From an uncultured Acidobacteriaceae bacterium (GTDB taxonomy: Bacteria > Acidobacteriota > Terriglobia > Terriglobales > Acidobacteriaceae), in NCBI GenBank assembly GCA_963800025.1, contig CAWCZK010000005.1, positions 269,184-333,183 of the forward strand: 64,000 nt of DNA, given 5' to 3'. This document shows positions 2,690-28,495 of the stretch, one piece after another. The notes beneath the pieces are model-generated. The model saw nothing but the letters and a program-made list of their open reading frames with translations, had not been told where the DNA came from and did no database searches. Each line of letters starts with the position of its first letter. Position 1 is the stretch's first letter. A program made the translations under genes and the position numbers.

Positions 2690-4676
2690 TCATGCCGCCG
2701 GGATCGTGAGCTGGGAAGTTCTCTTCGTGTTGGCGAATGGAATCCGGTGAGTCCCAGGGACGATCAGTTTCCCGGCGCGAAGCAGCACGCGGCAATCGGA
2801 TTCGGGGATTGCCGGGCTGTACAGAAATCCTTGCACTTCTTCACAGTTTTGCTTTCTGAAGTAGTTAAGCTGCTCCGACGTTTCCACGCCCTCCGCCACA
2901 CAAGCCAGGCCAAGATCGCGGCCTAAGTTGATGATGCTTCGCACCACCGCCTCGGCAGTCGGCTCTGAAGCGATGTCACGCAGGAACGAGCGATCGATCT
3001 TAATGCGGTCGATGGGAAACCGTCTCAAATACGACAACGACGACCATCCGGTGCCGAAATCATCGAGTGACAGGCTTACTCCGAGCCGTTTCAGCGCTCG
3101 CATGATCTTGATCGTCGTCTCCGAGTCATCGAGCATCAGGGATTCCGTCAGCTCCACTCCAACCACTTCGGATCCAGGCCGGATTCGGATAGTGCGCGCG
3201 TTACGCTGCTTGCAATATTGCTCCGGTAGAACTGCGTTGACGAGAGATTCACCATCATGCGTATGGGCGGGAGTCCAGCCTTCTGCCACGCCGCGTTTTG
3301 CAGGCACGCGGTTCTCAGCACCCAGTTCCCAACGTCGGTCATCAAACCCAGTTCTTCCAGCCTGCGGAACAAACAGGTTGGGGAAGATCATTCCTTGTTC
3401 CGGATGGCGCCAGCGCAGCAAGGCCTCCACGCCCGTAATGCCGCCCGAATCTGTTGCCACCAGCGGTTGGTAATAAAGCACAAACTCTTCTCGCGCCAGG
3501 GCGTGCTGCAGATCAAATTCCAGCTTCTGCCGGCGTCGCGTCGCATCCGTAAGTTCCGCCGTGAAAAAGGAATAATTGCCGCGCCCACCGTTCTTCGCCT
3601 CGTACATCGCTGTGTCCGCAGCTTGCAGTAAGTCCCGTGGGTTCTCTCCGTCCGAAGGGTATTCGCAAATGCCGATGCTGGCGCCGATCTGAATTCCATG
3701 TCCTTCAATCTCAAAGGACTCTGTTAATGCGCTCAACACCTTGCTCGCCACACGCTCGATATCCTGATCGTTCTCCACCAGCGGAAGGCCGATCACAAAC
3801 TCGTCTCCGCCGAGGCGCGCCACGATGTCGCTTTCGCGCAGGCAATTCCTCAGTCGCACCGCCACAGCCTCAAGCAGACGATCGCCGATATGGTGCCCGA
3901 ATGAATCGTTCACGCTCTTGAAACGGTCCAGATCCAGCATCAGGACGGCGACCCTCTTGCCGTTCCGGCCCGCCAGGGCGATTGCATGGCCAAGCAAATC
4001 CTCGAGAAGCGACCGATTCGGCAGCCCTGTCAGCGCGTCGTGAAGCGCCATGTAGCGGATGCGCAACTCTGCCTGCTTCCGGTCGGTAATGTCCCTCGAA
4101 ATCCCCATCGTGCCCAGGATCCGGCCATGCCGGTCCTTCAGAGGCACCTTCGTCGTCAACACCCACGACTCGTGCCCATCAGGCCAGGTTTCTTTCTCTT
4201 CCATTCCCATAATCCCGCGGCCGGTTTCAATGATTTTCCGTTCGTCTTCGAGGGCCCGGCAGGCGTGCTCGGGCGTGAACATGTCGGAATCCGCTTTTGC
4301 CGTGGCTTCCGCGGGGTCGCTTAGTCCAAAACTATTGGCCAGCGCCCGATTGATGCGCAGAAAGCGGCTGTTGCAGTCCTTGAAATAAACGTGGTCAGGG
4401 ATGTGTTCGAGGGAATGCGCTCAGAAAGTCGCGGTCTGTGCTGTATTCCCGGTCCGCCAGTTCGCGCAGAATCAATAGACCGGCCACCACAGCCAACAGA
4501 AACACGGTCAGTCCGATTGCCGCGACTCCCGGACGTGAGTGGAGGGAATCGCGCGCTACCGGTGAACGTGCCGGCGTTGAGGCGATCAGCAAAACCGTCA
4601 CCATGCATCCCAGCAGCATCGCCGCCAGAGCGATCACAGTGCCCGGAATTGCAGGGAATCGCTTGAAAAACTTCAT
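2690..4676 (-). pseudogene. TM-PAS-GGDEF-EAL c-di-GMP signalling protein, readable only across three frame changes (pseudogene or sequence errors)
   Basis: ORF 4395..4676 supplies two N-terminal TM helices. ORF 2690..4282 supplies the PAS end, GGDEF (RLGGDEFVIGL) and EAL (YYQPLV..., ELTESLMLDD, DDFGTGWSSLSYLRRFPIDRIKIDRSF). Alternate-frame ORF 3148..3372 carries the missing EAL core (EELGLMTDVGNWVLRTACLQNAAWQKAGLPPIRMMVNLSSTQF). The main frame continues upstream as SLEHIPDHVYFKDCNSRFLRINRALANSFGLSDP (PAS N-cap) until a stop at 4421-4423. Frame changes are needed at about 4398-4420, 3355-3365 and 3151-3160. Confidence 0.8.
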
Positions 4677-5746: not shown

Positions 5747-7343
5747 ATGCCGACATTCGCCGCCATCGACATCGGTTCCAACTCCTGCAGACTCAAGATC
5801 GCCCGCGTCCATGCGCATCGACTCAAAACAGTTGCGGAAGATCGCGAGGTCACGCGCCTCGGTGGCAGCGTATTTGATACCGGCCTCATCTCGCCTGAGG
5901 CCATGGCGGCCACTTTGCGCGCGCTCAAGCGTTTTCAGCGCTCCGTGCAGGCTCACGGCGTCGACCGCATTCGCGTGGTGGCTACTGCGGCCATGCGTGA
6001 CGCCCGCAACTCGGCTGCCTTTCAGGCCTGGGTCAAGGCCGAGACCGGCTGGAACATGGAGATCATCTCCGGCCTCGAGGAAGGCCGCCTCATCCATCTC
6101 GGAGTCACCGGCGCCGAACCGGGAGCCGGTGGCCGCGTGCTGCTTCTCGATCTCGGCGGCGGAAGCTGCGAGATCACGCTCTCTGAGCACAAGCGCATCA
6201 AGGAGACGGTCAGTCTGCCGCTCGGGGCAGTCCGGTTAACCGAGCAATTTCTCTCCGACGATCCTGCTCCGCGCGATGGTCTGGTGCGCATGCGGCAGTT
6301 GATTGCGCGCGAGCTGCGTCGCGCGCATCGCAGAATTCAGCCCGGCCGCGCGCCTTTAGTGATTGCCACCTCGGGCACAGCTGCGGCGCTCTCCGCCGCT
6401 TATGCTCAAGGCGCAAAGAATGGCAAGCCGGGGGCGAAGAAGGCTGGCAAGTCCCTCGCCAAATCCGGTTCCGACCGCGCCGAAGATCGCTCCGCCATTC
6501 TGGCCGGAATGGTGCCTGCGCGCTCCGTACGTAAACTTGCCGGCAAGCTGGCCAAGATGTCGCTCCCGCAGCGCGAGGCCGTGCCCGGCATTGGCCCGCG
6601 CCGCGCTGAAATCATCGTCGCCGGCGCAGAGGTCTACTCTGAAATCCTTGAGAGTTTCGGGCTGAAAGGCTTTCGCTACTCGCCCCTCGGCCTGCGCGAC
6701 GGCATTCTGGCGCAGATGCTTGCCGAACAGGATGCACGCGCGAAAGCACACCGCGAGTTCGAGCATGAGCGCTGGGAGAGCGTGCTATCCACGGCGCGCC
6801 GCTACGGCGTCGATCCCCGCCAGGCCGATCCCGTGCGCGCCCATACCGTCCAGCTTTTTCGCGAGCTCAAGTCCATGCACGAGCTTCCCACGGAATACGA
6901 GAGGCTGGCTCGCTGCGGCCGCCATGCTCCGCGATACAGGAAAGTTCATTAACCACCAGGGCCATCACCGGCACACGCAATACATCATCTCCAGCTCTGA
7001 AATTTATGGATATACGCAGTTGCAGCGCACTCTCGTCTCGGCCATTGCGCGCTACCTGGGCAAAAGCCGTCCTCAGCCTGGCGATCGCGCTCTGCGCAAC
7101 ATTCCCGCCGACGAGCACAAGAACGTCAATCGCGCCGTGGTCCTGCTGCGCCTCGCGATAGCCTTGAATCAGGATCGCGCCTCGGACGTTTTGCGCGTCA
7201 CCACGCGGGTCTACCCGAAGAGAGTCTTGCTGGAGTTGCGCCCTGGGCGCACCGGCGCCGAGCTGGAATTGTGGTCTTTGCGCAAAGAAGCCGGCTACTT
7301 CCGCGAAGTCTTCGGACGCGAGCTTTTCGTCACGCTCGCGTAA
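5747..7343 (+). pseudogene. ppx: Exopolyphosphatase Ppx/GppA, interrupted by a +1 frame change near 6904-6909 (or a sequence error)
   Basis: ORF 5747..6952 has the Ppx-GppA N-terminal ATPase fold (AAIDIGSNSCRLKIA, LLLDLGGGSCEI). The C-terminal HD-like domain continues in the frame of ORF 6720..7343 (AAAAMLRDTGKFINHQGHHRHTQYII...). Deleting one g from ctGGctc restores EYERLLAAAAMLRD. Confidence 0.8.
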
Positions 7344-7822
7344 ATGATCCGAGCCGTGCGTGGATCCAGAAGCCACTGCAGCCGTGGCGGATGACGCTCC
7401 ATGTCGACCCGCGCAATCGAGCCTTTGCGCATCCGGATCGATGCGCCGCCGTTGCCGCTGATCATGCGGCCGAGGAACTGAAACATGTTCGGGTTGTGCC
7501 CAACGGCTAGAACCCCCTCGCGGCCGGCGTATTTCGCCAACATGTTCTGGAAATCGGCGAAACTCGCGTTCAATCCGAGGCCTGGGCTGATCTCGACCTT
7601 CCCCTCAAAGCCCAATTCGGTGCCGACGAGCTGCGCTGTTTGCATGGCACGCTTAAGAGAGCTTGAAACGATGGTGTCTATGGGCGCTTTGAGGGCGCCG
7701 AGAACCCGCGCCATGAGCATGCATTGCTGCTTTCCTTCCTTAACGAGGCCTCGCTTTAGATCGAGAATGGGGTTCTCGCGATTGGTGCCGGCATCTGCGT
7801 GGCGCATCAGATAAAGGATCAT
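7295..7822 (-). CDS. sixA: Phosphohistidine phosphatase SixA (histidine phosphatase superfamily)
   Basis: ORF 7295..7822. It has LYLMRHADA (the RHG-type motif), SSSLKRAMQTAQ and VGHNPNM. Its 3' end overlaps the convergent ppx 3' end by 49 nt. Confidence 0.75.
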   Translation of the reverse strand: MILYLMRHADAGTNRENPILDLKRGLVKEGKQQCMLMARVLGALKAPIDTIVSSSLKRAMQTAQLVGTELGFEGKVEISPGLGLNASFADFQNMLAKYAGREGVLAVGHNPNMFQFLGRMISGNGGASIRMRKGSIARVDMERHPPRLQWLLDPRTARIIYASVTKSSRPKTSRK

Positions 7823-11099: not shown

Positions 11100-11801
11100 C
11101 TACTTCTTGCTGCGCCACGTCTCGCTCACCAGCAGTCCGCATATCCGCGTGCGTCGCTCCGTCAGCACAAATCCGGCCTCGCACATTGCGGCATGATGGT
11201 TGGGCAGGCTGCGGATTTCGAGTCCGGTTAGAAACCCGAACGCCCAATAAAGCAGCCAGACCAGAGGGCGCGCGACAAGCCGGCCAAACAATCCCTCTGG
11301 AACCGCGAACTCCGACACGATCCACACGGCAGAAGGTGAGATAGCGCCCCGCAACCTCGCGGCCAGGTCGTAACACTCGTCTGTCGTCAGGCAGTCGAGG
11401 AAGAAGTGCGTGGCCACCAGATCGTACCGCGCGTGTTCAGGAATCCATTCGCGTACGTCGGCACAATGAGGAGTGACCCGGCGTCCGTTCAGTCCGGCCC
11501 TGTGAAGCAATGCATCGAGCATTGCTGGGCTAGCGTCCACGGCGTCGATTCGAACCTCAGAATTCACGCCGAGCAACTCCGCGGTAAAGCGTCCATCGCC
11601 GTCGCCGAGGACAAGCGCGTGGCCCGCCGACCCAAGCTGAGAAAGAAACGCCGTGCGGCACAGTGAAAGCAGCGGACCAAACGTCAGAAGCTCCATCCAG
11701 CGGTAGAGCTTCGCCAGACGATCGAAGTTTGGGGCCCGCCTCGCCAATGTGAATTCCGTGGATTCGAGTCCAACGAATTCCGAATTGGCCGTCGTATTCA
11801 T
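11100..11801 (-). CDS. Class I SAM-dependent methyltransferase
   Basis: ORF 11100..11801. It has motif I ALVLGDGDGRF and acidic motif II IDAVDASPAM. Its start overlaps the stop of the upstream membrane-protein gene (ATGA, 11798-11801). Confidence 0.7.
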   Translation of the reverse strand: MNTTANSEFVGLESTEFTLARRAPNFDRLAKLYRWMELLTFGPLLSLCRTAFLSQLGSAGHALVLGDGDGRFTAELLGVNSEVRIDAVDASPAMLDALLHRAGLNGRRVTPHCADVREWIPEHARYDLVATHFFLDCLTTDECYDLAARLRGAISPSAVWIVSEFAVPEGLFGRLVARPLVWLLYWAFGFLTGLEIRSLPNHHAAMCEAGFVLTERRTRICGLLVSETWRSKK

Positions 11802-12928
11802 CGTAGAAAAAGCACAAGCGGCGTCAGCAAAACCAAATCGGCGGCGGCGCGCAGAGCAAGCGGCGTCAGCCGCGTTCGCATGCGATCAAGCAACGCCAGC
11901 AGGAATGCACTCGCTGCGCCCGCCGTGAGCAGATCCGCCGAGCGCGGCTGCGAAAGGTCAGCAACCATCGCCAGCAGCAGCCCTGCAAATGCAACGAGCA
12001 GCGCTGCGAAGAGATTCGGCCCTTGCCCCATCAGTGACCCGAAGAACCACCGCTTAACCTGGTCGCCCCGTTCTTCGCTGTCCTCGCCGTTTGCTTCCCA
12101 CCTGGCGATCAAGCTGCAATTGAGCCACGCGAGCCCGGCGAAATAGACCGCCGGGATCCAGAACCACAAACTGGAATGTTCGAGCGGCCCCAAGGTGTGC
12201 TGGCGCGTCCACGCCGGCAAGATGCAGCCCGCTGTAAACACCGCCGCAACGAGCATCTCTTTGCTCAGAGGGCTTCGAAGCAAGTGCCGGCCTCGCTGCA
12301 CGCGGGGCGCCGCATGAACGCCCGAAAAGTAAACCAGCGCAGCAGCGGCCAGAATCATGCCTCGCTCGCGCACAATGATAGGCAGCAAAGTCACCGCCAT
12401 CACCCCCGCGGCGCACGCGGCGGCCACGGCCAGCGGCGCCAATAACCGCCGATGCCGCCAATGAAAGAAGTGGCGTTCGCGCAGTCCCGGCTGAATCGAT
12501 CCCGACGACGAATGGAGGCCCGTGCGCACGTCCAGCAGTCGATCGCAGACATAGGCACACCAAGCCGTCAGCGCCAGGACCATCAAGACTTGATCCCCAA
12601 GGCGAATCCCGACCGCCCATGCGATTGCCAGCGACCAGACCACGGCGACGGTAGGTGCGTCCAGGCTGGCCAAATGCCACAAGGCCACTGGACGCGGAGC
12701 ATCGACCAGCCGGATTGTGTTCGTGCGACGGTCTGAAGTCCGGGCATGAATCTTGTCCCGAACCGGCAACTGGGCGAAGGGAAGCGGCACTGCTTCAATT
12801 TTAGGAGGTTCGGCATCTCCAGCCTCACTGTGCCTCGCCCCGGGCCCGCCTCTCCGCAACCCCGCCCGTCCCGCTGGCTCACCCCTTATTCCGCTCGGCT
12901 GGCTCGGCACCGGGAAAACGAATGGCAA
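11798..12928 (-). CDS. Polytopic membrane protein of unknown function (weak UbiA-like Asp-rich motif); start uncertain
   Basis: ORF 11798..12928. It has about 8 hydrophobic segments and the motif AYVCDRLLDVRTG followed by RERHFFHWRHRR. The first ~90 codons are Arg/Pro/Gly-rich and may not be coding. Confidence 0.5.
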   Translation of the reverse strand: MPFVFPVPSQPSGIRGEPAGRAGLRRGGPGARHSEAGDAEPPKIEAVPLPFAQLPVRDKIHARTSDRRTNTIRLVDAPRPVALWHLASLDAPTVAVVWSLAIAWAVGIRLGDQVLMVLALTAWCAYVCDRLLDVRTGLHSSSGSIQPGLRERHFFHWRHRRLLAPLAVAAACAAGVMAVTLLPIIVRERGMILAAAALVYFSGVHAAPRVQRGRHLLRSPLSKEMLVAAVFTAGCILPAWTRQHTLGPLEHSSLWFWIPAVYFAGLAWLNCSLIARWEANGEDSEERGDQVKRWFFGSLMGQGPNLFAALLVAFAGLLLAMVADLSQPRSADLLTAGAASAFLLALLDRMRTRLTPLALRAAADLVLLTPLVLFLR

Positions 12929-13009: not shown

Positions 13010-14482
13010 ATGATCGTTGAGGTTGGGTCTATGATCGAAACTATGAGCCGTGCGGCAATCAGTCGCGACTGGGTCGGGAGTTATGCCGCCGACAGGTTTC
13101 CCCTCATTCAATGGCTCGGTGGCTCGCAAGCAACCGGTGTCTTTCTCACCGAGTTGAGCGAGAATTCGCAAAAGGCCGTCATCAAATTAATCCCCGAAGA
13201 TGATCGGGATGCCGCCGCCCGCGCCGCCGCATGGGAGACTGCAGCCACCCTTTCCCACCCCAATCTAATGAAGGTCTATACGCACGGCCGCTGTGAAATT
13301 GACGGCGTTCCCTGCTTCTACGTCGTCACAGAATATGCCGACGAGGTTCTTGCGGAGATCCTTAAGGAGCGACCGCTCTCGCCTGAAGAGACTCGCGAAA
13401 TGCTCGGGCCGGCTCTGGCAGCGCTCGCTTATTTGCACGACAAGGGTCTCGTCCACGGTCGCCTCAACCCCTCGAACATCATGGCCGCCGGCGACAGCCT
13501 CAAGCTCACCACTTACGGCGTTTGTCCCGTGGGCGCGGCCGTCATATCCAGGCCAAGCCGAACCGTCTGCGATGCTCCAGAGACCGAAAACGGGTTGATT
13601 GTTCCTGCCTCGGATATTTGGTCTCTCGGTGCCACTCTTGTCGAAGTCCTCACCAAGTACCCGCCGGTTTGGAATCGCGCCAAAGCCGCCGACCCAACGG
13701 TGCCCCAGTCGATGCCCGAGCCGTTCGCGACCTTCGCGCGGAAATGCCTGCGTTCCGATCCTGCCCGTCGCATCACCATCAGCGAAATCACCGCGCGTCT
13801 TGATCCGTCAAAAGCGTCTCCGGAGCCGGAAACAAAGGAGGCCGTGGCACCGCATGCGAAACGCCGCGTCGCTGTGCTGCTTGCTGTCGCAGCTGTGCTG
13901 CTGGTCGCGATCGCAATCTGGAAAATCCTCTCGCATCGTGACCAGTCAACATCGCCGGCTCCGCAAGCCCAAACCACCCCTGCTGCCACTCCGGCTCAAA
14001 CTCCGGCTGAAACCTCGGCACAAGCTCCTGAGCAAACTCCAGCGCCGTCATCGGCGCCGGCCGTAAACTCAACTCCTCCTCAGGCTCCAGCGCCCGTCAC
14101 CGCATCTGTCCCGGCGGCCGCGCCGCCGCCGCAAGAAGCCCAGCCTAAAGTCGACCAGACTTCCGAGCCCAGCGCCACAACCGTCAACCCCGCAATCGTG
14201 AATCAGATTCTTCCCGACATTGTGCCTAGCGCAATGAAGACGATCAACGGAACTCTCAGAGTCACGGTGCAGATCGAGGTTGATGCCATTGGCGCCGTCT
14301 CCGCTGCCGCGCTCCTATCGCCCGGGCCGAGCAAGTATTTCGCCGGCAAATCGCTCGAGGCTGCCCGCCGCTGGAAGTTCAAGCCGCAGGCTGATGGCCA
14401 GGCCGGCCCAAGCACTTGGACGCTGGAGTTTCAATACAAGCAGAACGGAATTCACGTCGTCGCTCAGCAAGCCGCGCCATAG
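13010..14482 (+). CDS. Ser/Thr kinase-like domain (predicted pseudokinase), then a TM helix, a Pro/Ala/Thr/Gln-rich linker and a TonB C-terminal-like domain
   Basis: ORF 13010..14482. Kinase subdomains are recognisable: AVIKLI, WETAATLSHPNLM, DAPE, DIWSLGATLVEVL. The catalytic loop reads HGRLNPSN (canonical HRDLKPxN) and the DFG position reads TYG. The TM helix is VAVLLAVAAVLLVAIAIW, followed by a ~100-aa P/A/T/Q linker. The C-terminus is INGTLRVTVQIEVDAIGAVSAA...AARRWKFKP. The start could instead be ATG 13031, which lies 9 nt after GAGG. Confidence 0.7.
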   Translation: MIVEVGSMIETMSRAAISRDWVGSYAADRFPLIQWLGGSQATGVFLTELSENSQKAVIKLIPEDDRDAAARAAAWETAATLSHPNLMKVYTHGRCEIDGVPCFYVVTEYADEVLAEILKERPLSPEETREMLGPALAALAYLHDKGLVHGRLNPSNIMAAGDSLKLTTYGVCPVGAAVISRPSRTVCDAPETENGLIVPASDIWSLGATLVEVLTKYPPVWNRAKAADPTVPQSMPEPFATFARKCLRSDPARRITISEITARLDPSKASPEPETKEAVAPHAKRRVAVLLAVAAVLLVAIAIWKILSHRDQSTSPAPQAQTTPAATPAQTPAETSAQAPEQTPAPSSAPAVNSTPPQAPAPVTASVPAAAPPPQEAQPKVDQTSEPSATTVNPAIVNQILPDIVPSAMKTINGTLRVTVQIEVDAIGAVSAAALLSPGPSKYFAGKSLEAARRWKFKPQADGQAGPSTWTLEFQYKQNGIHVVAQQAAP

Positions 14483-14490
14483 CTGGAGGT

Positions 14491-16638
14491 TCAGTCGGCC
14501 GCCGCGTCACTCTTCTCAGCAGCTTTTACGCGAGGCTTCGCATCGGCCGCGGGAAGCGCGTCCAAGTCCGTCTTTCCTTCCGCCAGTTGCATCAGGAATT
14601 CCTGCGCTGAGAAGGGCTGAACGTCCTTCATCAGCTTGCTGGCTCGCATGTAATTACCGTCGGACTGCTGGAGGCGGGCTTTTACGGTGTCAGCCATGTA
14701 GGCCGGCAGAATCTCGTCGTGTATGCGCGCCAGCGCCACAGGATCGCGGACCGGAAACACCACCTCGCAGCGCTCGAACAAATTCCGCGGCATCCAATCG
14801 GCGGAGCCGATGTAGATCTCGTCGCTGCCGCCGTTGGCAAAGTGATAAATGCGTGAGTGCTCCAGGAATCGCCCGACGATCGATCGCACCCGAATCCTCT
14901 CTGACAGGCCTTTCACTCCGGGCCGAAGAATGCACAGCCCGCGGATGATCAAATCGATCTCCACTCCAGCTTGGGACGCCTGGTAAAGCGCCTGGATAAT
15001 CGAGGGTTCGAGCAGCGCGTTCATCTTGGCCACGATGTGCGCCGGCCGCCCCGCCTGCGCGTGCTCCTGCTCGCGCCGGATGAGGCGCAGGAAACTCTCC
15101 GCCATGGTCAGCGGCGCCACGAGCAGCGGACTGTAATCGTCGACCTCGGCGTGAGCCGTCAGGTAGTTGAACACCATATGAACCCGCTCGGCAATCTGCG
15201 GATCGCTCGTCAGCAGGCTCAGGTCGGTATAGAAGCGCGCCGTGTCGGGGTTGTAGTTGCCCGTCCCGAGGTGGCAATAGCGGCGAGTCACTCCGTCCTC
15301 GTCGTGCCGCACCAGCATGGCCAGCTTGCAGTGCGTCTTCAGGCCCACAACGCCGTGAAAGACCTGCACGCCCGCGTCTTCCATGCTGCGCGCCCAGCGG
15401 ATGTTCGAGGCCTCGTCAAACCGCGCCATCAGCTCCACAACCACTGTTGCTTCCTTGCTGGCGCCGGCTTCGGTCAGCGCCCGGAACATGGGCGAGTCGT
15501 GGCTGGTGCGGTAAAGCGTCTGCTTCATCGTCACCACGGCGGGGTCCTGCGCGCCCTGCTGGATGAAGTCGACCACGGGATCGTAAGCATCGTAAGGATG
15601 ATGCAGCAGAATATCGTGATGGCGCAGCTCGTCGAAGATCCCCGTCGATTTGCGGCTCAGCAGCAGCGGCTTCGGAGTGAACGGTTGAAACTTCAGGTCG
15701 GCCCGTTGCACATCGCCGTAAAAGAACATCAGGCGCGAAAGATTCACCGGGCCCTCGCAGCGAAATACCTGGTCCTCTTCCAGCTCAAAGTTCACCCGCA
15801 GCCGCTCCACGATCTCTGAATCGGCGTCGCTCTCAATCTCCAGCCGAACCGCGTCCCCCTTGCGCCGGTTGTGCAGTTCTACGCGGATCGTTTCCAGCAG
15901 CGATCGCGCTTCTTCTTCCTCAAAGTAGAGGTTCGAGTTGCGGGTCACGCGGAATGCCGCCGATGCCAGCACTTCGTAGCCGCGATACATGCCACCGAGA
16001 TGCTGCTCAATCAGGTCCTGCAACAGCAGATAGTCGTGGTGGTTATGGTCGCAGGGCAGCCGGACAAAGCGCGGCAGCGCGCGCGGCACCGTCACCACTC
16101 CCAGTACCTGCGGCCCTGAACTGCGCCGTTTGGCGCGCAGCAGCAATGCCAGGCACAGCGCCTTGTTCAGCACGCGCGGAAACGGGTGAGCCGGGTCGAT
16201 CGAGATCGGCGTCAGCAATGGATCGACTTCGCGTTGGAAATATCCTCGCGCGAATTCACGGGCGTGCTCGCTCAGCTCGTCCCATGCCAGCAGCCGGATC
16301 CCGTGTTTGCGCAACTCCGGAAACAGTTGCTTGTTCCAGCAGTGGTATTGTGCTGCTACAAAGCCGTGAATCTCTGCGGTCAGAACGTCAAGCGACTCGT
16401 CGGGCCGCAGGCCATCGTAGCCGGGTTCGCGGTATCCGTCTTCAATGCGCTGCATCAGGCCGGCTTGGCGAACCTCGACATATTCGTCCAGATTCGACCC
16501 CGTGATGGCGAGGAACTTCACGCGCTCCAGCAACGGGTTGGCAGCGTCTTCGGCCTCCTCCAAAACGCGCCGATTGAACTGCATCCAGGAGTGGTCGCGC
16601 CCGTTGAAGAGCTTGATTTTTTTCGTGTTTCTGGCCAT
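14491..16638 (-). CDS. ppk1: Polyphosphate kinase 1
   Basis: ORF 14491..16800, trimmed to ATG 16638 (MARNTKKIKLFNGRDHSWMQFNRRVLEEAED, a typical PPK1 N-terminus). The protein is full length at about 715 aa with both PLD-like C-terminal domains (KTHCKLAMLV, GSADWMPRNL). Confidence 0.9.
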   Translation of the reverse strand: MARNTKKIKLFNGRDHSWMQFNRRVLEEAEDAANPLLERVKFLAITGSNLDEYVEVRQAGLMQRIEDGYREPGYDGLRPDESLDVLTAEIHGFVAAQYHCWNKQLFPELRKHGIRLLAWDELSEHAREFARGYFQREVDPLLTPISIDPAHPFPRVLNKALCLALLLRAKRRSSGPQVLGVVTVPRALPRFVRLPCDHNHHDYLLLQDLIEQHLGGMYRGYEVLASAAFRVTRNSNLYFEEEEARSLLETIRVELHNRRKGDAVRLEIESDADSEIVERLRVNFELEEDQVFRCEGPVNLSRLMFFYGDVQRADLKFQPFTPKPLLLSRKSTGIFDELRHHDILLHHPYDAYDPVVDFIQQGAQDPAVVTMKQTLYRTSHDSPMFRALTEAGASKEATVVVELMARFDEASNIRWARSMEDAGVQVFHGVVGLKTHCKLAMLVRHDEDGVTRRYCHLGTGNYNPDTARFYTDLSLLTSDPQIAERVHMVFNYLTAHAEVDDYSPLLVAPLTMAESFLRLIRREQEHAQAGRPAHIVAKMNALLEPSIIQALYQASQAGVEIDLIIRGLCILRPGVKGLSERIRVRSIVGRFLEHSRIYHFANGGSDEIYIGSADWMPRNLFERCEVVFPVRDPVALARIHDEILPAYMADTVKARLQQSDGNYMRASKLMKDVQPFSAQEFLMQLAEGKTDLDALPAADAKPRVKAAEKSDAAAD

Positions 16639-17022
16639 TTTCCGGTCCAATCCGCTGTGTTGGCAGTCTAACGCGTTCCGCTGGCGTGCGGCACCCAAAC
16701 CGGGCTGAGCTGCGTGCCACATTGCCATAACGGGCTTAGTCCCATCGATTCCGAAGACGGAAACGCTCCGGAGGCCCAAGCGCCCCACAAAGCCATCCAT
16801 ACAGGACCGAGCCCCTCTGCGGCGTTAAACAGAGAAGAAAACCGCTGGAGGAGGCGGCTCTGCTCCGCACGCCAAACCGGCCCACCGTTCGCAAACGGCC
16901 GCCGTGAGGGCCCTGTTCGATACACTAGATTTAAGAACCGTGTTGTCCTTCAGGCGCATCCATTTGTTGTAGGATTGCCATTTTCGGGCACCGACATTCG
17001 CCGTTCATACGCAAGGTCCAAA

Positions 17023-19879: not shown

Positions 19880-20065
19880 CTACGCCAATGAGTTGCTGAC
19901 GTTACTGAACACGCTATTGACGGCCTGCGCGACAGGCTTGACGCCAGTCACGCACGCAAGCGCAATGAAGGCGATCAGTAATGCATATTCGACCAGATCC
20001 TGACCCTGTTCGCTCTTCCCCAAATTCTGGAGCTGGATATACACCTTTAACAGCAAGTTATTCAT
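19880..20065 (-). CDS. flp: Flp/Fap family type IVb pilin
   Basis: Inside ORF 19880..20206, trimmed to ATG 20065, which is preceded by GAGAGAGGA. The product is MNNLLLKVYIQLQNLGKSEQGQDLVEYALLIAFIALACVTG..., 61 aa. It has the Flp processing motif G/xxxxEY followed by a hydrophobic helix. Confidence 0.8.
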   Translation of the reverse strand: MNNLLLKVYIQLQNLGKSEQGQDLVEYALLIAFIALACVTGVKPVAQAVNSVFSNVSNSLA

Positions 20066-20282
20066 ATGATCCTCTCTCGTCGTCGGATTTACAGATTGGC
20101 TAAGACGCGGCCGTGATTTGGGGGAATTGGCTGATTGAATCTTCAATGGCTTTAACCTCCGCGTCAACGTGGCTTCGGTGACGTCGAAGCGGTTACCTTT
20201 GCCCATCCATGAAAACTATGGCGTCTCGAAGATGTCACTTCGGCACGACGGATGAAGTGGAGCAAAAGGTAGTGAAATGAAG

Positions 20283-20350
20283 GGGTTAAGGGGTGAATGC
20301 CGACGGGTTGAAAATGAACAGGCCGCCTGTTGATTCTAAAGGAGTTGTTT
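20283..20350. repeat. Copy A of a duplicated non-coding module (GGGTTAAGGGGTGAATGC ... GGGTTGA ... CTGTTGATTCTAAAGGAGTTGTTT)
   Basis: Direct comparison with 20644-20759 shows the same ordered blocks. A third partial block, TGTTGATTCTAAACGAGTT, lies at 20404-20422. Confidence 0.6.
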
Positions 20351-20643
20351 GGCGCAAATCCGACGTAATTCGAGACATATTTTCAACATTTCCGAAGATC
20401 GTTTGTTGATTCTAAACGAGTTAAATGGCGAAAGCTTGGCGAAAAGCGAGAATTTTTTTATTTAATTAATTTTCGCTGTCTGGCGCTGGGAGTTTTGTGG
20501 CGGCTTGGATGGCCTTTGCCGGCGGCGGTGATGGACGTCATGATCGTGAATGCCATGAAGAATCCCCTTTCATCTTCAAGGCTACAGATTTGGGCGAATT
20601 AATCGGCAAACTTCGGGCAGGGAATTTTGCGAGTGGATTCAGT

Positions 20644-20759
20644 GGGTTAGGGGTGATTTGCGGATGGGAGGGGTTGACAGGACGCGTCGCCGCGCACACC
20701 CAAAGCCTCAACCGCCGGGGGAACGTCACCCGTCGAGTCTGTTGATCAACTAGTTGTTT
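20644..20759. repeat. Copy B of the duplicated non-coding module (GGGTTAGGGGTGATTTGC ... GGGGTTGACAGG ... CTGTTGATCAACTAGTTGTTT), with a ~50-nt insertion relative to copy A
   Basis: It has the same block order as 20283-20350. It contains the 10-bp palindrome GTTGATCAAC (20741-20750). Confidence 0.6.
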
Positions 20760-20817
20760 CCGGGTTTCCGGTCATTCAGTCGGCAATACGCGTCTTCACC
20801 CAATTTGAAAGACACTC

Positions 20818-21045
20818 TCACGCTGCGTCTGATTTTTCCTCAGGTTCCACCGATGTATCGGCCCGATCGACGTTTTTTCCGAAATGCTCTAATCTCCACG
20901 ATTCACATTGGTGGCGCAGCTCGGCTGAATCCAGGTCCGCCTCCCAAGTGGAAGCGGCGATTGTCGAGTAGCACCTGGTGCAGATGGAGTCTATTCCTCC
21001 ATCTGGGTTGGACCGTCGCACGAATTCAGGCAAAGAAGACGTCAT
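20818..21045 (-). CDS. Small hypothetical protein (75 aa) with a CxxC...HxC motif
   Basis: ORF 20818..21045: MTSSLPEFVRRSNPDGGIDSICTRCYSTIAASTWEADLDSAELRHQCESWRLEHF... It starts 29 nt downstream of the 88-aa ORF on the same strand. I do not recognise a family. Confidence 0.45.
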   Translation of the reverse strand: MTSSLPEFVRRSNPDGGIDSICTRCYSTIAASTWEADLDSAELRHQCESWRLEHFGKNVDRADTSVEPEEKSDAA

Positions 21046-21074
21046 GCCGACCTCCCATGCACAAAGTCTCTACC

Positions 21075-21341
21075 CTACAAATTCCATACGTAGAGGTAAT
21101 CGTCATCCGCCGCGGTGCCCACAGACTTGCCAATTTTTCGCGTGGCGCGGCTGAGAGCCGAGCGCACGTTCGTCTTGGTGTCTGTCAACTCGTCCAGCGG
21201 AATCTTTAGCGCTTTGCCCCCGTCCAGACCCTCGAGGTCATTCAGGATTCGGGTCACGATATCTCTGTGTTTGCCGCGCCGGCCGGTGGGTACATCCCCT
21301 CGCGCCGTGGTCTTGAACGTCCGGGCCTTGTTCTGAGGCAT
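21075..21341 (-). CDS. Small hypothetical protein (88 aa) with a basic N-terminus
   Basis: ORF 21075..21341: MPQNKARTFKTTARGDVPTGRRGKHRDIVTRILNDLEGLDGGKALKIPLDELTDTKTNVRSALSRATRKIGKSVGTAADDDYLYVWNL. I do not recognise a family. The sequence is plausibly coding rather than low-complexity. Confidence 0.5.
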   Translation of the reverse strand: MPQNKARTFKTTARGDVPTGRRGKHRDIVTRILNDLEGLDGGKALKIPLDELTDTKTNVRSALSRATRKIGKSVGTAADDDYLYVWNL

Positions 21342-21363
21342 AAATCAGATCCTCAAACGATAT

Positions 21364-21406
21364 CGCTAACGAGACGCTAACGAGAAGTTATAGCTACGCT
21401 AACGAA
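21364..21406 (-). promoter_or_regulatory. Three direct copies of CGCTAACGA(G/A)A (two exactly tandem 11-mers) just upstream of the 88-aa ORF
   Basis: CGCTAACGAGA occurs at 21364-21374 and 21375-21385, and CGCTAACGAA at 21397-21406. The copies lie 23-65 nt upstream of ATG 21341 on the coding (minus) strand, where they read TCGTTAGCG. Confidence 0.4.
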
Positions 21407-21734
21407 TACATCAGATATAGCACGAATGAAGATTAAGTCAACTATTATTTTCGATCTTAGAAATTCTGTAAGTTGTTTTTTAAGAGCAGGTTAAAGGGGA
21501 GGCAAAGAAAAAGTCCCCGTATCTGTGGATTCGGCCTACGGTTGATCCAGGGTGCAGAGTGAAACAGAAAATCAGGCAGTTTGAAGTTGTGCCGGTGTCG
21601 GTCGCGATGCAAAAGGCCCACCTTCTTGAGAAAGATCATCCAGGCGCGAAAGCTCCTAACAGGCGTCGCAGGACCATCGCGAATGAATCCCGCAAGGCTT
21701 CCCGACCTACCCAAGGAAATGATTGGAAAAAGTA

Positions 21735-22148
21735 ATGCAAAGAATCTTCGTTGTGGACGATGAGCAAGTGATTGCCGATACCCTGTCCGCAATTCTCAAG
21801 GGCTCCGGCTATGACGCGATCGCGTTCTACAACGCCGAAACTGCGCTCACCGCATGCGAGCACCAGCGGCCTGATTTCGTCATCACAGACGTTTCCATGC
21901 CTGGGATGAATGGTATCGAAATGGGCATCGAGATCCGGAGCCGCTTCCCCGAATGCGGAGTTCTTCTCTTCTCGGGACATGCGGGAACGTCGGTATTTCT
22001 TGAAACGGCAAAAGAAAGAGGCTGTAGTTTCGATGTGCTTACTAAGCCAGTACATCCGAAAGAACTGCTGGCCAAACTCGAGAGCGCCATTCGGCGGCCG
22101 ACTGAATCAGAAATTAGCCTCGACGACCCGGACGCTATCGCGGTCTGA
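21735..22148 (+). CDS. Stand-alone response regulator receiver domain (CheY-like)
   Basis: ORF 21723..22148, taken from ATG 21735: MQRIFVVDDEQV..., VITDVSMPGMNG (phospho-acceptor Asp), LLFSGH, LTKP. There is no output domain and no adjacent histidine kinase. Confidence 0.8.
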   Translation: MQRIFVVDDEQVIADTLSAILKGSGYDAIAFYNAETALTACEHQRPDFVITDVSMPGMNGIEMGIEIRSRFPECGVLLFSGHAGTSVFLETAKERGCSFDVLTKPVHPKELLAKLESAIRRPTESEISLDDPDAIAV

Positions 22149-22150
22149 GC

Positions 22151-22313
22151 ATTCGGAAGTCCACCGCGATCCGTTCTGTCGACCAGGTTGATCGTGCACT
22201 TGATGACACATTCGGGCAGCGCCGCGCCGGCAGGTGCGATAAACGATTTCGGAAGTCTAGCAATTTCGCATCGCTTTGACTTGCCGCGCCCACGTAGACG
22301 CCGATTCGGAAGT
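22151..22313 (+). promoter_or_regulatory. Three dispersed copies of (A/T)TTCGGAAGT in the spacer upstream of the DtxR/MntR-type regulator gene
   Basis: ATTCGGAAGT at 22151-22160, TTTCGGAAGT at 22247-22256 and ATTCGGAAGT at 22304-22313. Function is unknown. Confidence 0.3.
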
Positions 22314-22407
22314 AAGCGACGGTCCTTTCGCCCACCGCCCATCATCCCCCGTTGTTTACTATCCGCTGTTCAACCTCCTCCGGTTTAGACTGATCCTCAG
22401 CACACCC

Positions 22408-23076
22408 ATGAAGGACTCGATCCACGTTTCGAAAGAGAACTACCTCAAGGCCATTCTTGAAGCCGAGGCAGAAGGCCGCCAGGTGATTCCCGCCATGCTT
22501 GCGCATTGGCTTGAGGTATCCGCGCCGGCTGTGACGATGGCGCTCAAGCGCCTGAAGCGCGATGGATGCGTGAAGGTGGGCGAGGACGGCATCGTGCGCC
22601 TCACCGCGGCAGGCCGCGAAGTGGCCTATCACACCGCGCTGCGCCATCACCTCATCGAGCGCATGCTGAGCGAGGTCTTCGGCATGGAGTGGCACGAGAT
22701 TCACGAGGAAGCGGAGCGGCTGGAGCACGCGGTTTCGCCTGCATTCGAGGCCAAGCTCAAGGAGAAGCTCGGCGAAGGCGGCGCCTGCCCGCACGGGAAC
22801 TCCGTTCTTCCCTTAAACCCGGCCGAACGGAAAAAGAGAGGGGAGATACAGCTCTCCCAAGCCGCCGCCGGCAAGCGCTACACCGTGATCAGCCTCCAGG
22901 AGCGCGACCCAAAGCTGCTGGAGTTCCTGCACGCCTCCGGCATCGGGCCCGGCAAGAGCCTTCGCGTCGTGAGCCAGAATTACGACCAAACCGTTTTGAT
23001 TGATTTACCTACAGGAAACACGATTCTGGGGCGGCCGGCCGCGGAGGCTGTCTGGTTGCGTCCGGAGCGTTCATAG
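22408..23076 (+). CDS. mntR: DtxR/MntR-family metal-dependent transcriptional repressor with a FeoA-like C-terminal domain
   Basis: ORF 22276..23076, trimmed to ATG 22408: MKDSIHVSKENYLKAILEAEAEG... (winged HTH), HHLIERML, EWHEIHEEAERLEHAVS (metal-binding helix region), then an SH3-like tail. It sits directly upstream of an NRAMP transporter gene. Confidence 0.8.
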   Translation: MKDSIHVSKENYLKAILEAEAEGRQVIPAMLAHWLEVSAPAVTMALKRLKRDGCVKVGEDGIVRLTAAGREVAYHTALRHHLIERMLSEVFGMEWHEIHEEAERLEHAVSPAFEAKLKEKLGEGGACPHGNSVLPLNPAERKKRGEIQLSQAAAGKRYTVISLQERDPKLLEFLHASGIGPGKSLRVVSQNYDQTVLIDLPTGNTILGRPAAEAVWLRPERS

Positions 23077-23309
23077 TAATTTAATCTAAAAGAAAACATT
23101 AACTACGCTTAATAAGTTGTGCCATACTGGAGTTGAGTGGCGCTGATGCCTCTCAAAGCGAATGCCGCATTGTGACGGTCGCGCGCTGCCCGAATTCTCC
23201 CGGACGGAGCCAATGGAGCATGCACCGCGTTCGCGTTGGCCCGTTCTGCAAATGTTCACGTAAAGCCAAAAGACTTCTGTACCCAGCGTTGCCGAGGAAT
23301 ACCAGGCCA

Positions 23310-24689
23310 GTGAACGCCAGCACAAAAATCGGTCCAGATCCTCCCGTCGCAGCGGACGAACTTGTCGTCACGCATGAGGACATCGATCGCGCATACGACC
23401 GCTCGCGCGTGAGCGCAGCGCGGCGCTCGCTGGGGCTGCGCGCGCATGTGTCGCTGCTTTGGCTTTTGGTGGGGCCGGGCATCCTGGTGATGCTGGGCGA
23501 GAACGACGGCCCCAGCATGCTTTCCTACGCCGCGACCGGCGCGAAGTTCGGCATTGGCTTCTTCCTTCCGTTCGTGGTGCTCACTTTTGTGATGGCGCTG
23601 GTAGTGCAGGAGATGACGGTGCGGCTGGGCGCAGCCACGCATCGCGGCCACGCCGAGCTGATCTTCGAGCGGTTCGGCCCCTTCTGGGGCTGGTTCTCGG
23701 TGATCGATCTCAGCGTGGGCAACTTTCTCACGCTGGTTACCGAATTCATTGCGATCCGCGCCGGGTTCGGCTACTTCGGCGTGCCGCCATGGGCCGCGGT
23801 TCTGGTGGCGCTCGTGGTGCTTTTTTCCGCGCTGCTGAGCCACCGCTACTGGACATGGGAGCGTGTGACTCTGGCGGCCGCGGCCTGCAACCTGATTTTC
23901 GTGCCCGTGGCCCTGATGGCGCACCCGCAGTGGGGCGCAATCGGACACGCCATGCTCACATGGACGCCTTTGCCCCACGCGAACCAGGAGACTTTGCTGA
24001 TCCTGCTCTCGGACATCGGAGCCACTGTCACGCCATGGATGCTGTTCTTCCAGCAGAGCGCCACCGTGGACAAGGGCTTGACGACAAAAGACATTCGATT
24101 CGGGCGCATCGACACTGTGTTGGGCGCGGGCCTGGCTGCGCTGGCTGCGCTCGGCGCAATCATCGCCACCGCGCCGCTGTTTGGCCATATTGGCGCGGCC
24201 AATTTTGAAGCCGCGCAGTTTGCACAGGCGCTGGAGCCGATCGTGGGGCATATCGGCGCGTCGCTGTTTGCCCTGGGCATGATCGAGGCCGGCATCGTTG
24301 CCTCCATCACCATCTCCACGTCGTCGGCCTACGCATTCGGCGAGGTTGCGCGCCGCCCGCACAGCCTGAATCTTCCGGTGAATCAGGGCAAGTCGTTTTA
24401 CGCTGTGCTCTGCCTTTGTGCAGCGGTCGCAGCGGCCATCGTGCTGATTCCGAACCTGCCTCTCACCTTCGTGGTGCTGGTCGTGAATGTGGTGGCCGTT
24501 CTCGCCATGCCGCCGGCTCTGGTGTTTCTTTATCTGCTCGTCAACGACCCGCAAATCATGGGCGGCGTGCGCAGCCCTCGGTGGGCCAATGCGCTGGCGG
24601 CCGCTGTGGTCGTGTTGCTGACCGCCGCAGGCGTCCTCTATGGAATCAGCGTCGTCTTCCCACAGGCATTCGCGTGGCTGGGGAGTTAA
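23310..24689 (+). CDS. mntH: NRAMP-family divalent metal (Mn2+/Fe2+) transporter; start uncertain
   Basis: ORF 23133..24689. It has VGPGILVMLGENDGPSMLSYAATGAKFGIGFF (the NRAMP signature region) and about 11 TM segments. Candidate starts are GTG 23310 (chosen) and ATG 23220. The first ~60 codons of the ORF do not look protein-like. Confidence 0.8.
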   Translation: MNASTKIGPDPPVAADELVVTHEDIDRAYDRSRVSAARRSLGLRAHVSLLWLLVGPGILVMLGENDGPSMLSYAATGAKFGIGFFLPFVVLTFVMALVVQEMTVRLGAATHRGHAELIFERFGPFWGWFSVIDLSVGNFLTLVTEFIAIRAGFGYFGVPPWAAVLVALVVLFSALLSHRYWTWERVTLAAAACNLIFVPVALMAHPQWGAIGHAMLTWTPLPHANQETLLILLSDIGATVTPWMLFFQQSATVDKGLTTKDIRFGRIDTVLGAGLAALAALGAIIATAPLFGHIGAANFEAAQFAQALEPIVGHIGASLFALGMIEAGIVASITISTSSAYAFGEVARRPHSLNLPVNQGKSFYAVLCLCAAVAAAIVLIPNLPLTFVVLVVNVVAVLAMPPALVFLYLLVNDPQIMGGVRSPRWANALAAAVVVLLTAAGVLYGISVVFPQAFAWLGS

Positions 24690-24698
24690 GGGGAACAG

Positions 24699-24905
24699 AT
24701 GGAAGAGACGAAACACATTTCGGAAGAAGAAGTTGACTGGGTTCTCGAAAACCTGGAACAGGATCAACTCGTTCAGAAGAAATCCGCACCTGTTCCCCGC
24801 CGGCAATTGCGCGGCGGAGAGTTGGTGCTGGTATGGGCCCTGCGCATTTACCTGATCTTCATGATGGTCGTCGTCTTCTGGCAGGCATGGATGGCTGTGC
24901 GGTAA
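24699..24905 (+). CDS. Small membrane protein (68 aa), likely co-transcribed with mntH
   Basis: ORF 24699..24905. The ATG is 9 nt after the mntH stop and is preceded by AAGGGGAA. The N-terminal half is acidic (EEEVDWVLENLEQDQL) and the C-terminus has a TM helix (LVLVWALRIYLIFMMVVVFWQAWMAV). Confidence 0.5.
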   Translation: MEETKHISEEEVDWVLENLEQDQLVQKKSAPVPRRQLRGGELVLVWALRIYLIFMMVVVFWQAWMAVR

Positions 24906-24994
24906 GCGGACGCAGCTGCAGAACGCGCGGTCTTCGCGCGGGCCGCGATGGGCCGGCGATTTTCCCACACTTCCCCGATCGCCTGGAGGTTCAT

Positions 24995-27900: not shown

Positions 27901-28495
27901 GGAGATCTTCGGCGGCTGGTCGCTTTCTGAGACGGCCTTCTTCCATACTGGCTTGCCGTTCAGCGTCCTGAGCCAACCGTACACGGCGAACGGAAAAGGG
28001 GTCTTCCAAGCGAGCGGGCCACAGTTTGCGCGGCGAGCTACTGGTGAGCCGCTTTATCGCAAAACAGCGTTCCCCGGAGTGACAGTGGCCGGAACCCGCC
28101 AGTGGCTCAACCCCGATGCCTTTGTTTCGGTTGTCGATCCCACCACCGGGGAGTGTGCCGGTGGCGATTCGGAAGCTGATTGCCAATTCGGCGACGCCGG
28201 CCGCAACACGGTGCGCGGGCCGCACTTTGCGGACTCTGACATTTACCTGTCGCGCAAGTTTCCGCACCGGGAGGGGTCTTCGTTCCGATTCGATGTGCAA
28301 TTGTTTAACGCCTTCAACCACCCCAATTTTGCGCTACCCGGCAACGTGGAGGCCGGCGTCCCGGGCGAGTACGTCCCCCCCAAGTTCGGCACCTTGGAAA
28401 GTACGATCTCGCCTCCGACGGGGTTGCTCGGGGTGGGATTGGGAGGGGACAGCTCGCCCCGAATGGTCGCGTTTGAGGGTCGGATCGAGTTCTGA
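24995..28495 (+). CDS. TonB-dependent receptor-like outer membrane protein with a carboxypeptidase-regulatory-like N-terminal domain (receptor 1); start codon problematic
   Basis: ORF 24833..28495. It has AIAGTVRDSSGATVANAEVTATEVETKAVRAQRTDQNGLFLFSQLNPGIYSVTVEANGF (CarboxypepD_reg-like), a ~1100-aa beta-barrel region and a terminal ...GRIEF. The signal peptide KYKRSTRGLLAVSFLLTLVNSGRLVAQS begins right after codon 24995-24997. That codon is ACG and lies 5 nt after GGAGG (24985-24989). The nearest canonical in-frame start is ATG 24887. Confidence 0.8.
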   Translation, partial: TKYKRSTRGLLAVSFLLTLVNSGRLVAQSGTSSAIAGTVRDSSGATVANAEVTATEVETKAVRAQRTDQNGLFLFSQLNPGIYSVTVEANGFATATSQRVVVEVGHTITLNFGLILPIAAQTVEVTAQQALVSLENPNTSTTLEAKTIAKLPNPGQDLTFIAQFAPGALMNTAGSSNDAKAPGGYGNVEFNGLPATSNGYILDGFDSNDPWLGLNIGLSTNLVIGLDAVDQATVNTNSYSVDQGRYGASQVNYFTKAGTNAFHGDLYEIWNGSLFNAEDYFLHANDTAGEVAQKPRSNVNEFGVSVGGPIRKDKLFFFAHYEGVRIALPLVTQIVVPSEAYQQYVLSQLPLGGVDPTTGTALPAEPAEVPFYAAMFKLYRSTAGTAIPVSSCPLDASGALLAGMQTSGNLFNGSGCANQRQESMTNDDDENLIVAKIDQTIDANNSVWYRFQQDTGLQAAFTDPINSIFNSYSPQPQRTLVVGYTHVFRSNLVNQFNPGASWYSSIFEPNNYGQVEQTFPIVVTSGSNDAPFTTIGGNDNTYPQGRKVTQWQINDNLDWTRGKHSFRFGVNTRRIDVSDYDLGEGTVPTAVYDDLAEFTYGAAYTESTTFPIALKERVAAGNVDAYAMDTWKPTTRATVTAGFRATWNTDPVNQQRLFARPAGSFLDLSHDASQPLDAAIETKVRSLFPAMPLIMWQPRFSVAYQIARETVVHAGFGVFNDIIPAQIADLAATNAPYAPTFVGGLGGQVGGVGLAPGVPNSASDAAANANRRFQAVFTSGAAPCAGIASGAGACPLAVSLNTFPTGTLKTPYYYQYNFGIEHQLAAHSSVRIDYVGTRGLHEPFLEGLNGYQTVCAGCFAPYAYQQPPDQRFGNVNEFRTDAGSSYSGLQASVDEHLSFLTLRANYTLSHCLDEVSNGGLLSFSAQGILSPLPGEIEQQYGNCDYDVRQNISAFGVAQIPYPRKNALLREIFGGWSLSETAFFHTGLPFSVLSQPYTANGKGVFQASGPQFARRATGEPLYRKTAFPGVTVAGTRQWLNPDAFVSVVDPTTGECAGGDSEADCQFGDAGRNTVRGPHFADSDIYLSRKFPHREGSSFRFDVQLFNAFNHPNFALPGNVEAGVPGEYVPPKFGTLESTISPPTGLLGVGLGGDSSPRMVAFEGRIEF

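Follow-up and report, generated by a model that had tools for sequence, protein, structure and literature searches.

A Terriglobales protein family joining a predicted pseudokinase domain to a TonB C-terminal domain across the inner membrane

We analysed a stretch of 64,000 nucleotides (hereafter the window) from an uncultured Acidobacteriaceae bacterium (assembly GCA_963800025.1, contig CAWCZK010000005.1), which carries a gene for a protein made of four parts: a Hanks-type kinase fold, one transmembrane (TM) helix, a disordered linker and a TonB C-terminal domain. The list of open reading frames (ORFs) gives this gene exactly as a preliminary description of the locus had placed it, at 13010-14482, and residue numbers throughout refer to the 490-aa ORF so defined. 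The true start is probably the ATG at 13031 (M8), yielding a product of 483 aa, because 17 of the 24 aligned homologues begin at the M8 position (MIETMS...) and a GAGG lies at 13019-13022, 8 nt upstream of that ATG. The features of the gene are as follows.

13010..14482, + strand: full ORF of the pseudokinase-TonB_C gene, stop codon included; 490 aa (ORF list).
13067..13804, + strand: cytoplasmic Hanks-type pseudokinase domain, residues ~20-265 (Pfam Pkinase, PknB match, AlphaFold2 (AF2), Foldseek).
13184..13186, + strand: beta3 lysine K59 (AVIKLI), kept; aligns with PknB K40.
13454..13477, + strand: catalytic-loop equivalent HGRLNPSN, residues 149-156; aligned with PknB HRDVKPAN.
13511..13519, + strand: DFG equivalent T168-Y169-G170, without Asp; aligned with PknB DFG.
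13571..13582, + strand: DAPE (APE motif, end of the activation segment), kept; P190 in 377/378 and E191 in 370/378 family members.
13859..13933, + strand: single TM helix, residues 284-308 (AF2 helix), preceded by K-R-R on the cytoplasmic side.
13934..14185, + strand: disordered periplasmic linker rich in Ala, Pro, Ser, Thr and Gln, residues 309-392 (AF2, predicted local distance difference test score (pLDDT) ~30).
14195..14476, + strand: periplasmic TonB C-terminal domain, residues 396-489 (TIGR01352, PDB profile matches, AF2, Foldseek).

The preliminary description had recognised a Hanks-type fold in the N-terminal part of the protein, and sequence profiles, the nearest solved relative and structural models all agree with it. 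Pfam Pkinase (PF00069) matches residues 39-261 with 77.5 bits (E 1.4e-21; gathering cutoff 31.7), and the best relative of solved structure, found by phmmer against the PDB, is Mycobacterium tuberculosis PknB (E 7.5e-19). An AF2 model built on an alignment of 25 family sequences reaches a pLDDT of ~90 across residues 20-265; compared with the PDB by Foldseek, it finds PknB (2fum, TMt 0.79) as the top match and then other Ser/Thr kinases. The Gly-rich loop has degenerated to GGSQATG, with Ser in place of the second Gly. Two NCBIfam models, MADS6 (80 bits against a cutoff of 460) and PknB_PASTA_kin (61 bits against a cutoff of 450), were rejected as family assignments, their scores reflecting generic kinase similarity only.

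The residues on which a kinase of this fold depends are only partly retained. AVIKLI aligns on the PknB strand VAVKVL, and its lysine, K59, is found in 358 of 378 unique family members, the set on which all catalytic-site counts are based. K59, DAPE and DIWSLG are all present, as had been reported, and so are the departures from the canonical sequence: the catalytic loop had been read as HGRLNPSN in place of HRDLKPxN and the DFG position as TYG, with both aspartates gone, and alignments with PknB and within the family (25, 84 and 378 sequences) likewise match R151 to the HRD Asp and T168/Y169 to DFG. Within the loop, Gly stands where HRD has its Arg, Arg151 takes the place of the catalytic Asp and Asn153 that of the loop Lys, while Asn156 is kept (Asn in 373/378). 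The segment KLTTYGV contains no Asp at all, and therefore a shift of register cannot supply a DFG Asp in this protein; nor did Pfam, phmmer against the PDB or three MAFFT family alignments yield any alternative register restoring an Asp at either HRD or DFG. For the alpha-C Glu claimed earlier the evidence is mixed: E76 is present, but PknB E59 aligns instead with A74, two residues before it, and residue 76 is Glu in only 120/378 members (32%). The nearly invariant T185 was considered as a phospho-acceptor, but its counterpart in the alignment is the P+1-loop structural Thr (GTxxYxxPE), and this claim was dropped. With Arg151 standing for the HRD Asp and Thr168/Tyr169 for the DFG Asp, the best explanation of the alignments is a kinase fold predicted to be incapable of canonical phosphotransfer.

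Across the family, the catalytic site occurs in three states. Residue 151, the HRD-Asp position, is R in 183 members, H in 142 and D in 20; residue 168, the DFG-Asp position, is never Asp; and residue 169 is D in 294, Y in 73 and E in 5. The first state combines HGDLKPAN with KLSSD[A/T]I and keeps K59 and N156; it is found in 20/378 members, including proteins of Ca. Acidiferrum/Acidoferrum, and these HGD members may still be active. In the second (279/378), HG[R/H] is accompanied by a catalytic-loop Lys or Arg and by an Asp one residue past the DFG-Asp position. The third (73/378), to which the protein studied here belongs, joins HGR to N153 and Y169. All 73 members with Tyr169 have N153, and the combination of Lys153 with Tyr169 never occurs (residues 151, 153 and 169 are encoded at 13460-13462, 13466-13468 and 13514-13516). 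This pairing is probably a single lineage event and hence is not read as statistical covariation. Judged by these residues, the protein represents the most degenerate state within its family. Since a minority HGD clade with an intact catalytic loop lies in the same family, the graded series suggests descent from a receptor kinase that already had TonB_C as its extracytoplasmic module, i.e. a signalling lineage, and the family offers natural intermediates of kinase-to-pseudokinase decay.

One TM helix followed by a TonB-like periplasmic linker had also been proposed, and the AF2 model agrees, placing a disordered segment directly after the helix. The membrane anchor is internal, with a 283-residue cytoplasmic region preceding it. 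Among 77 family sequences, the core of the helix is composed of A, V, L, I and G only, without a conserved polar residue, and a search of the same sequences for a Ser/His pattern resembling the SHLS of TonB found none. In E. coli TonB, the polar TM signature S16/H20/L27/S31 serves coupling to ExbB-ExbD. A semi-conserved S-H-R follows the helix at its periplasmic edge, where S308 and H309 are adjacent and conserved only to ~68%. No Pfam match to TonB_N was obtained in the protein even at E<=10. The linker spans ~85 aa here and 25-141 aa in the family (median 89 aa), with a family composition of 23% A, 20% P, 12% S, 9% T and 7% Q. NCBIfam matches to GltJ (E 6e-5), SrfA and GspB fall on this low-complexity linker and were rejected as evidence of homology.

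The C-terminal region is, on profile and model evidence, predicted to be a genuine TonB C-terminal domain, as the preliminary description had it. NCBIfam TIGR01352 (tonB_Cterm) matches with 30.2 bits, over its cutoff of 27.1; Pfam TonB_C (PF03544), taken alone, is sub-threshold, matching residues 417-477 with 22.8 bits (E 1.2e-4), 1.8 bits under its gathering cutoff of 24.6. When all PDB sequences were searched with a 16-sequence family profile of the last 98 aa, the only significant matches were TonB C-terminal domains (E 1.2e-6 to 4.6e-5), among them those of Vibrio TonB2 (2k9k) and E. coli TonB (1u07, 2gsk and others). Modelled on its own by AF2, the domain has a pLDDT of 87 and a predicted TM-score of 0.77. 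Checked for a different fold by Foldseek, this model returned TonB or FusB C-terminal domains for all 14 top matches (probability >=0.99, TM <=0.76), with TolA domain III appearing lower in the list. Its secondary structure (short helix, beta-hairpin, helix, beta3 at 468-477 and beta4 at 480-489) follows the same order as in TonB C-terminal domains, and the beta3 strand that pairs with the Ton box is kept, W470 being found in 365/378 and F474 in 345/378 family members.

Relatives of the protein are numerous. A first homology search gave 983 matches, of which the top 120, used for sizes and domains, are all ~360-590 aa long and mostly carry both Pfam domains; those with names are Terracidiphilus. 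When one genome from each GTDB species was scanned for a sequence pattern, 192 stretches encoding a relative were recovered. The 80 of these 192 that were analysed come from 80 different assemblies of Acidobacteriaceae, Terracidiphilus, Ca. Sulfotelmatobacter, Ca. Acidiferrum and unclassified Acidobacteriota metagenome-assembled genomes (MAGs). One locus per assembly is as expected for a conserved orthologue and not for a decaying fusion. A profile search of 1.84 billion representatives found 1,725 proteins at E<=1e-30 (representatives at 50% identity), the best 150 of which are near-full-length matches of ~360-610 aa, and a second profile search seeded with distant members returned only Pkinase+TonB_C proteins, the named ones being Terriglobales, Ca. 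Acidoferrum/Acidiferrum and Terracidiphilus. Among the matches found, the family is thus seen only in Terriglobales, as far as sequence searches can tell; all of them came from MAGs or metagenomes, and no cultured isolates were seen among the named ones. In public databases, members carry automatic annotations, either "TonB family protein" or "serine/threonine protein kinase", so that the Pkinase+TonB_C pair is visible there but so far without interpretation.

Conservation, averaged by column over 77 sequences derived from the loci, is highest in the block around the catalytic loop (residues 141-160) and in the DIWSLG block (0.81 each), reaches ~0.75 in alpha2-beta3 of TonB_C (residues 441-460) and falls to 0.05-0.2 in the linker. 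This pattern points to purifying selection on both globular domains and not on the linker, so that the dead active site would be maintained as a functional surface. The closest relatives, in three Acidobacteriaceae MAGs with MFD labels (L023, L035 and L047), are 89-92% identical over the matched part and seem truncated or frameshifted; these broken copies are more likely assembly indel errors than real pseudogenes.

Around the gene, the window contains the following.

14491-16800, - strand: ppk1, convergent with the pseudokinase-TonB_C gene and 8 bp from its stop codon (Pfam scan).
5747-6952 (+ strand) and 7295-7822 (- strand): ppx (Ppx-GppA) and a His_Phos_1 phosphatase, on the upstream side of the gene.
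11798-12928, - strand: divergent upstream neighbour, a 376-aa membrane protein without Pfam match.
24833-28495, + strand: receptor-like protein 1, 1220 aa (CarboxypepD_reg, OMP_b-brl_4, sub-threshold Plug at 20.1 against 23.9 bits).
56855-57478 and 57444-60404, both + strand: receptor-like gene 2, split into two overlapping ORFs in different frames, CarboxypepD_reg in one and the OMP_b-brl_4 barrel in the other.

The product of 11798-12928 has a weak match to an LA_0991 prenyltransferase-like NCBIfam model (32.6 bits against a cutoff of 300), and its gene is co-conserved with an adjoining methyltransferase in close relatives; the pseudokinase-TonB_C gene is also divergent from that methyltransferase and a GH3 glycosidase. 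Beyond ppk1 lies an OEP/MFP efflux pair. The ppx/ppk1/OEP-MFP order is kept in relatives of at least ~45% identity (L001, L003 and ~35 other loci), in genomes where Ppk1 itself is 85-95% identical, and members at ~45% identity or below have unrelated neighbourhoods with no recurrent neighbour. With synteny confined to close relatives and gone in distant members, ppk1, ppx and OEP/MFP were rejected as functional partners, and a link between the basic pseudo-active site and polyphosphate would be pure speculation. The gene looks monocistronic at all loci examined, and a promoter and terminator scan was uninformative.

The preliminary description had noted that no exbB or exbD is adjacent, an absence that extends to the whole window: Pfam scans of its ~50 ORFs found no exbB, exbD, second tonB, active Hanks kinase, FHA or PP2C, and a family TonB_C hidden Markov model (HMM) run against its six-frame translation found no second TonB_C copy. 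Nor was exbBD found near any of the ~85 family loci examined by homology or Pfam. The two giant receptor-like genes of the same description are real, but at distances of 10 and 43 kb from the gene; the second is split, which reflects a frameshift, a pseudogene or a sequencing error. Receptor-like protein 1 is the last of three genes lying head to tail at 22276-28495 (+ strand), after a DtxR/IdeR-type repressor with a FeoA domain and an Nramp/MntH transporter, and together they look like one metal-uptake locus; an IdeR-type gene occupies the equivalent relative position in L003.

Elsewhere in the window, the region 20001-22000 has a GC content of 0.51 against ~0.60 elsewhere and contains small ORFs without Pfam match; it adjoins a Flp/Fap pilin-like ORF (19880-20206, - strand) and may be horizontally acquired or largely intergenic. 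A PAS-GGDEF-EAL cyclic-di-GMP protein stands beside a PMT_2-type glycosyltransferase (2690-4282 and 400-2583, both - strand), unrelated to the pseudokinase-TonB_C gene. At 48228-48638 (+ strand) is a PIN-domain (VapC-like) ORF, whose sole small neighbour in the ORF list (47943-48236) runs on the other strand, so that no antitoxin partner could be recognised.

We tentatively read the protein, with a probability of about 45%, as a receptor pseudokinase, bitopic in the inner membrane, with TonB_C for its periplasmic docking or sensor module. According to this model, the ~265 N-terminal residues would form a non-catalytic kinase fold in the cytoplasm, and the TM helix and ~85-residue linker would position TonB_C near the outer membrane. 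There, the conserved beta3 strand of TonB_C (xWxLxFxF) would allow it to dock, by beta-strand augmentation, onto a Ton-box-like segment that a partner in the outer membrane or periplasm exposes. The most plausible partner, we infer, would be a CarboxypepD_reg-type protein resembling TonB-dependent transporters, of which Terriglobales have many. Occupancy or clustering of that partner would then be relayed to the cytoplasmic pseudokinase, whose strongly conserved, now basic pseudo-active-site surface would let it serve non-catalytically, either as a scaffold or as an allosteric switch. The preliminary description had likewise favoured signalling over energy transduction. The featureless TM helix and the HGD clade make that plausible; the two arguments it had relied on are weak. 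The lack of adjacent exbBD counts for little, since tonB of E. coli is not linked to exbBD either, as is often the case for tonB genes, and nearness to two receptor-like genes is uninformative given their distances and a neighbourhood unconserved beyond close relatives.

Several observations weigh against the receptor-pseudokinase reading. The analysis identified no binding partner on either side of the membrane; the gene has no conserved operon partner, and the window lacks any active Hanks kinase, FHA or PP2C gene. In the HMM alignment, the YP motif and the R166-equivalent of E. coli TonB are not conserved, and therefore binding of a Ton box cannot be assumed. With K59 and N156 kept, the domain might still bind a nucleotide or carry out non-canonical chemistry. 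The protein has precisely the topology of TonB, and tonB is often unlinked to exbBD, which is compatible with energy coupling, and the Myxococcus xanthus proteins GltJ and GltG, which share this layout, work with a TolQR/ExbBD-like motor, so that the analogy would support motor coupling equally. These last points lead to the main rival, possible if unlikely, which is a working TonB paralogue whose TM helix engages an ExbB-ExbD or TolQR-like motor with genes at another locus, and whose TonB_C energises one class of outer-membrane transporter. The pseudokinase would then be an added regulatory or localisation module, e.g. a docking site or substrate of active kinases, much as the cytoplasmic domains of GltJ gate the Agl-Glt machine. 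Such a paralogue would have the topology observed (N-in, one TM helix, a Pro-rich linker crossing the periplasm, TonB_C) and the conserved W470 and F474 of the Ton-box-pairing strand; absent exbBD neighbours say little given the E. coli precedent, GltG and GltJ are motor-coupled TonB_C proteins with large cytoplasmic domains, and transporter-like proteins are abundant in Terriglobales, two of them within this window. However, the TM core lacks a conserved Ser/His pattern like SHLS and exbBD linkage is absent at ~85 family loci, neither of which is decisive, TonB_N gives no match, and the HGD members suggest phosphorylation as the ancestral output.

Less likely alternatives dispense with a signal or restore an enzyme. 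TonB_C could bind peptidoglycan or an outer-membrane protein constitutively and so anchor a pseudokinase scaffold as a passive envelope tether or spacer, with no ligand-dependent signal. Structural, non-transport TonB-like proteins exist (SjdR at Anabaena septa is reported to be one), no signalling partner lies in the neighbourhood, and linker length varies widely (25-141 aa), but few parts of the protein are as conserved as the pseudo-active-site region, and such conservation exceeds the needs of a passive anchor, which makes a mere tether distinctly unlikely. The protein might instead still be an enzyme, in which K59 and N156, among other residues, serve a non-canonical phosphotransfer or another nucleotide-dependent reaction, with TonB_C as the sensor of a working receptor kinase. 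In favour are the retention of both residues (358/378 and 373/378), the Asp that most members carry one residue after the DFG-Asp position and the minority with HGD, and a pseudokinase review notes bacterial families that may be active despite degraded motifs. However, the protein itself has neither the HRD Asp, nor the catalytic-loop Lys (N153), nor any Asp in the DFG segment, and its Gly-rich loop is degenerate; residual catalysis is very improbable here.

The receptor-pseudokinase reading could be taken a step further, to a trans-envelope route in Terriglobales that has gone unrecognised, in which a lineage of receptor kinases and pseudokinases reads Ton-box exposure through TonB_C and reports transporter occupancy to a kinase-fold switch, bypassing both the ExbBD motor and the classical sigma/anti-sigma pathway of FecA/FecR/FecI. 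We regard this extension as rather unlikely. If it were true, the HGD, HG[R/H]+Asp and HGR+Asn+Tyr states would record the stepwise conversion of a phosphorylating into an allosteric receptor. Terriglobales are dominant bacteria of soil and peat, with very large repertoires of TonB-dependent-type receptors, and were they to have a sensor devoted to receptor state, this would matter for the regulation of their polymer and metal uptake.

Compared with known systems, the protein most resembles TonB itself in its periplasmic half. Like the TonB proteins of E. coli, Vibrio (TonB2) and Pseudomonas, it is N-in/C-out, with a Pro-rich spacer and a TonB_C domain with a conserved beta3 strand, but where TonB has a short cytoplasmic N-terminus it has a ~280-residue cytoplasmic kinase-like domain; it also differs from TonB in its TM helix without a conserved Ser/His pattern, its unconserved YP motif and R166-equivalent, and the absence of exbBD nearby. 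The closest characterised analogues are GltJ and GltG of the M. xanthus Agl-Glt gliding machinery, which link cytoplasmic regulators to the envelope with the same layout: GltJ consists of ZnR and GYF domains, a TM segment, a disordered segment and TonB_C, and GltG of two FHA domains followed by the same three elements. Their cytoplasmic domains are unrelated to that of the present protein, in which Pkinase is the sole cytoplasmic domain detected, and whereas both are encoded in agl/glt clusters and work with the AglRQS motor, the window contains no glt- or agl-like genes. The preliminary description knew of no characterised example; this holds for a kinase or pseudokinase fused to TonB_C, of which our literature search found no paper, but it overlooks the layout of GltJ and GltG.

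TonB_C is also joined to a membrane or cytoplasmic signalling-type module in the BlaR1-like Peptidase_M56-TonB_C fusions (TonB1 and TonB10 of Bacteroides thetaiotaomicron). A study of Bacteroides TonB homologues describes TonB proteins with extra domains as functionally uncharacterised and suggests that the M56/BlaR1-TonB_C fusions are signal transducers; their N-terminal module is a polytopic metalloprotease sensor-transducer and not a kinase fold, and they belong to different phyla. From the kinase side, M. tuberculosis PknB provides the closest solved domain and the same layout of cytoplasmic kinase, single TM helix and extracytoplasmic sensor. PknB, however, is catalytically active and senses through PASTA domains, whereas the present protein lacks the catalytic Asp residues and carries TonB_C as its outer module. 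The clade-wide fusion with a kinase fold gives the clearest hint to date of TonB_C as an input module for cytoplasmic signalling.

Among bacterial pseudokinases, the MviN/MurJ pseudokinase domain (ActPs3) and EssB/YukC resemble the protein in having a degenerate, membrane-attached Hanks-type fold that serves as a scaffold or regulatory module. The 2025 bacterial serine/threonine kinase (STK) Atlas and its companion review describe seven pseudokinase families (ActPs1-3, GLW, DLHK, CP1 and DYD), found in Actinobacteria, Cyanobacteria or Proteobacteria with COG3899, PQQ, PAS and other accessory domains; all include loss of the VAIK Lys, and the two publications mention TonB and Acidobacteria zero times. 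The present family is set apart by these descriptions, being found in Terriglobales and bearing TonB_C, and because it keeps the VAIK Lys (358/378) it falls outside the described families; on the features compared, it fits none of the seven. The protein is built from two known modules and belongs to a large, clade-restricted and uncharacterised family. The family keeps the VAIK Lys while exchanging the catalytic Asp for Arg or His, and its intermediates allow tests of what the active site of a bacterial pseudokinase does.

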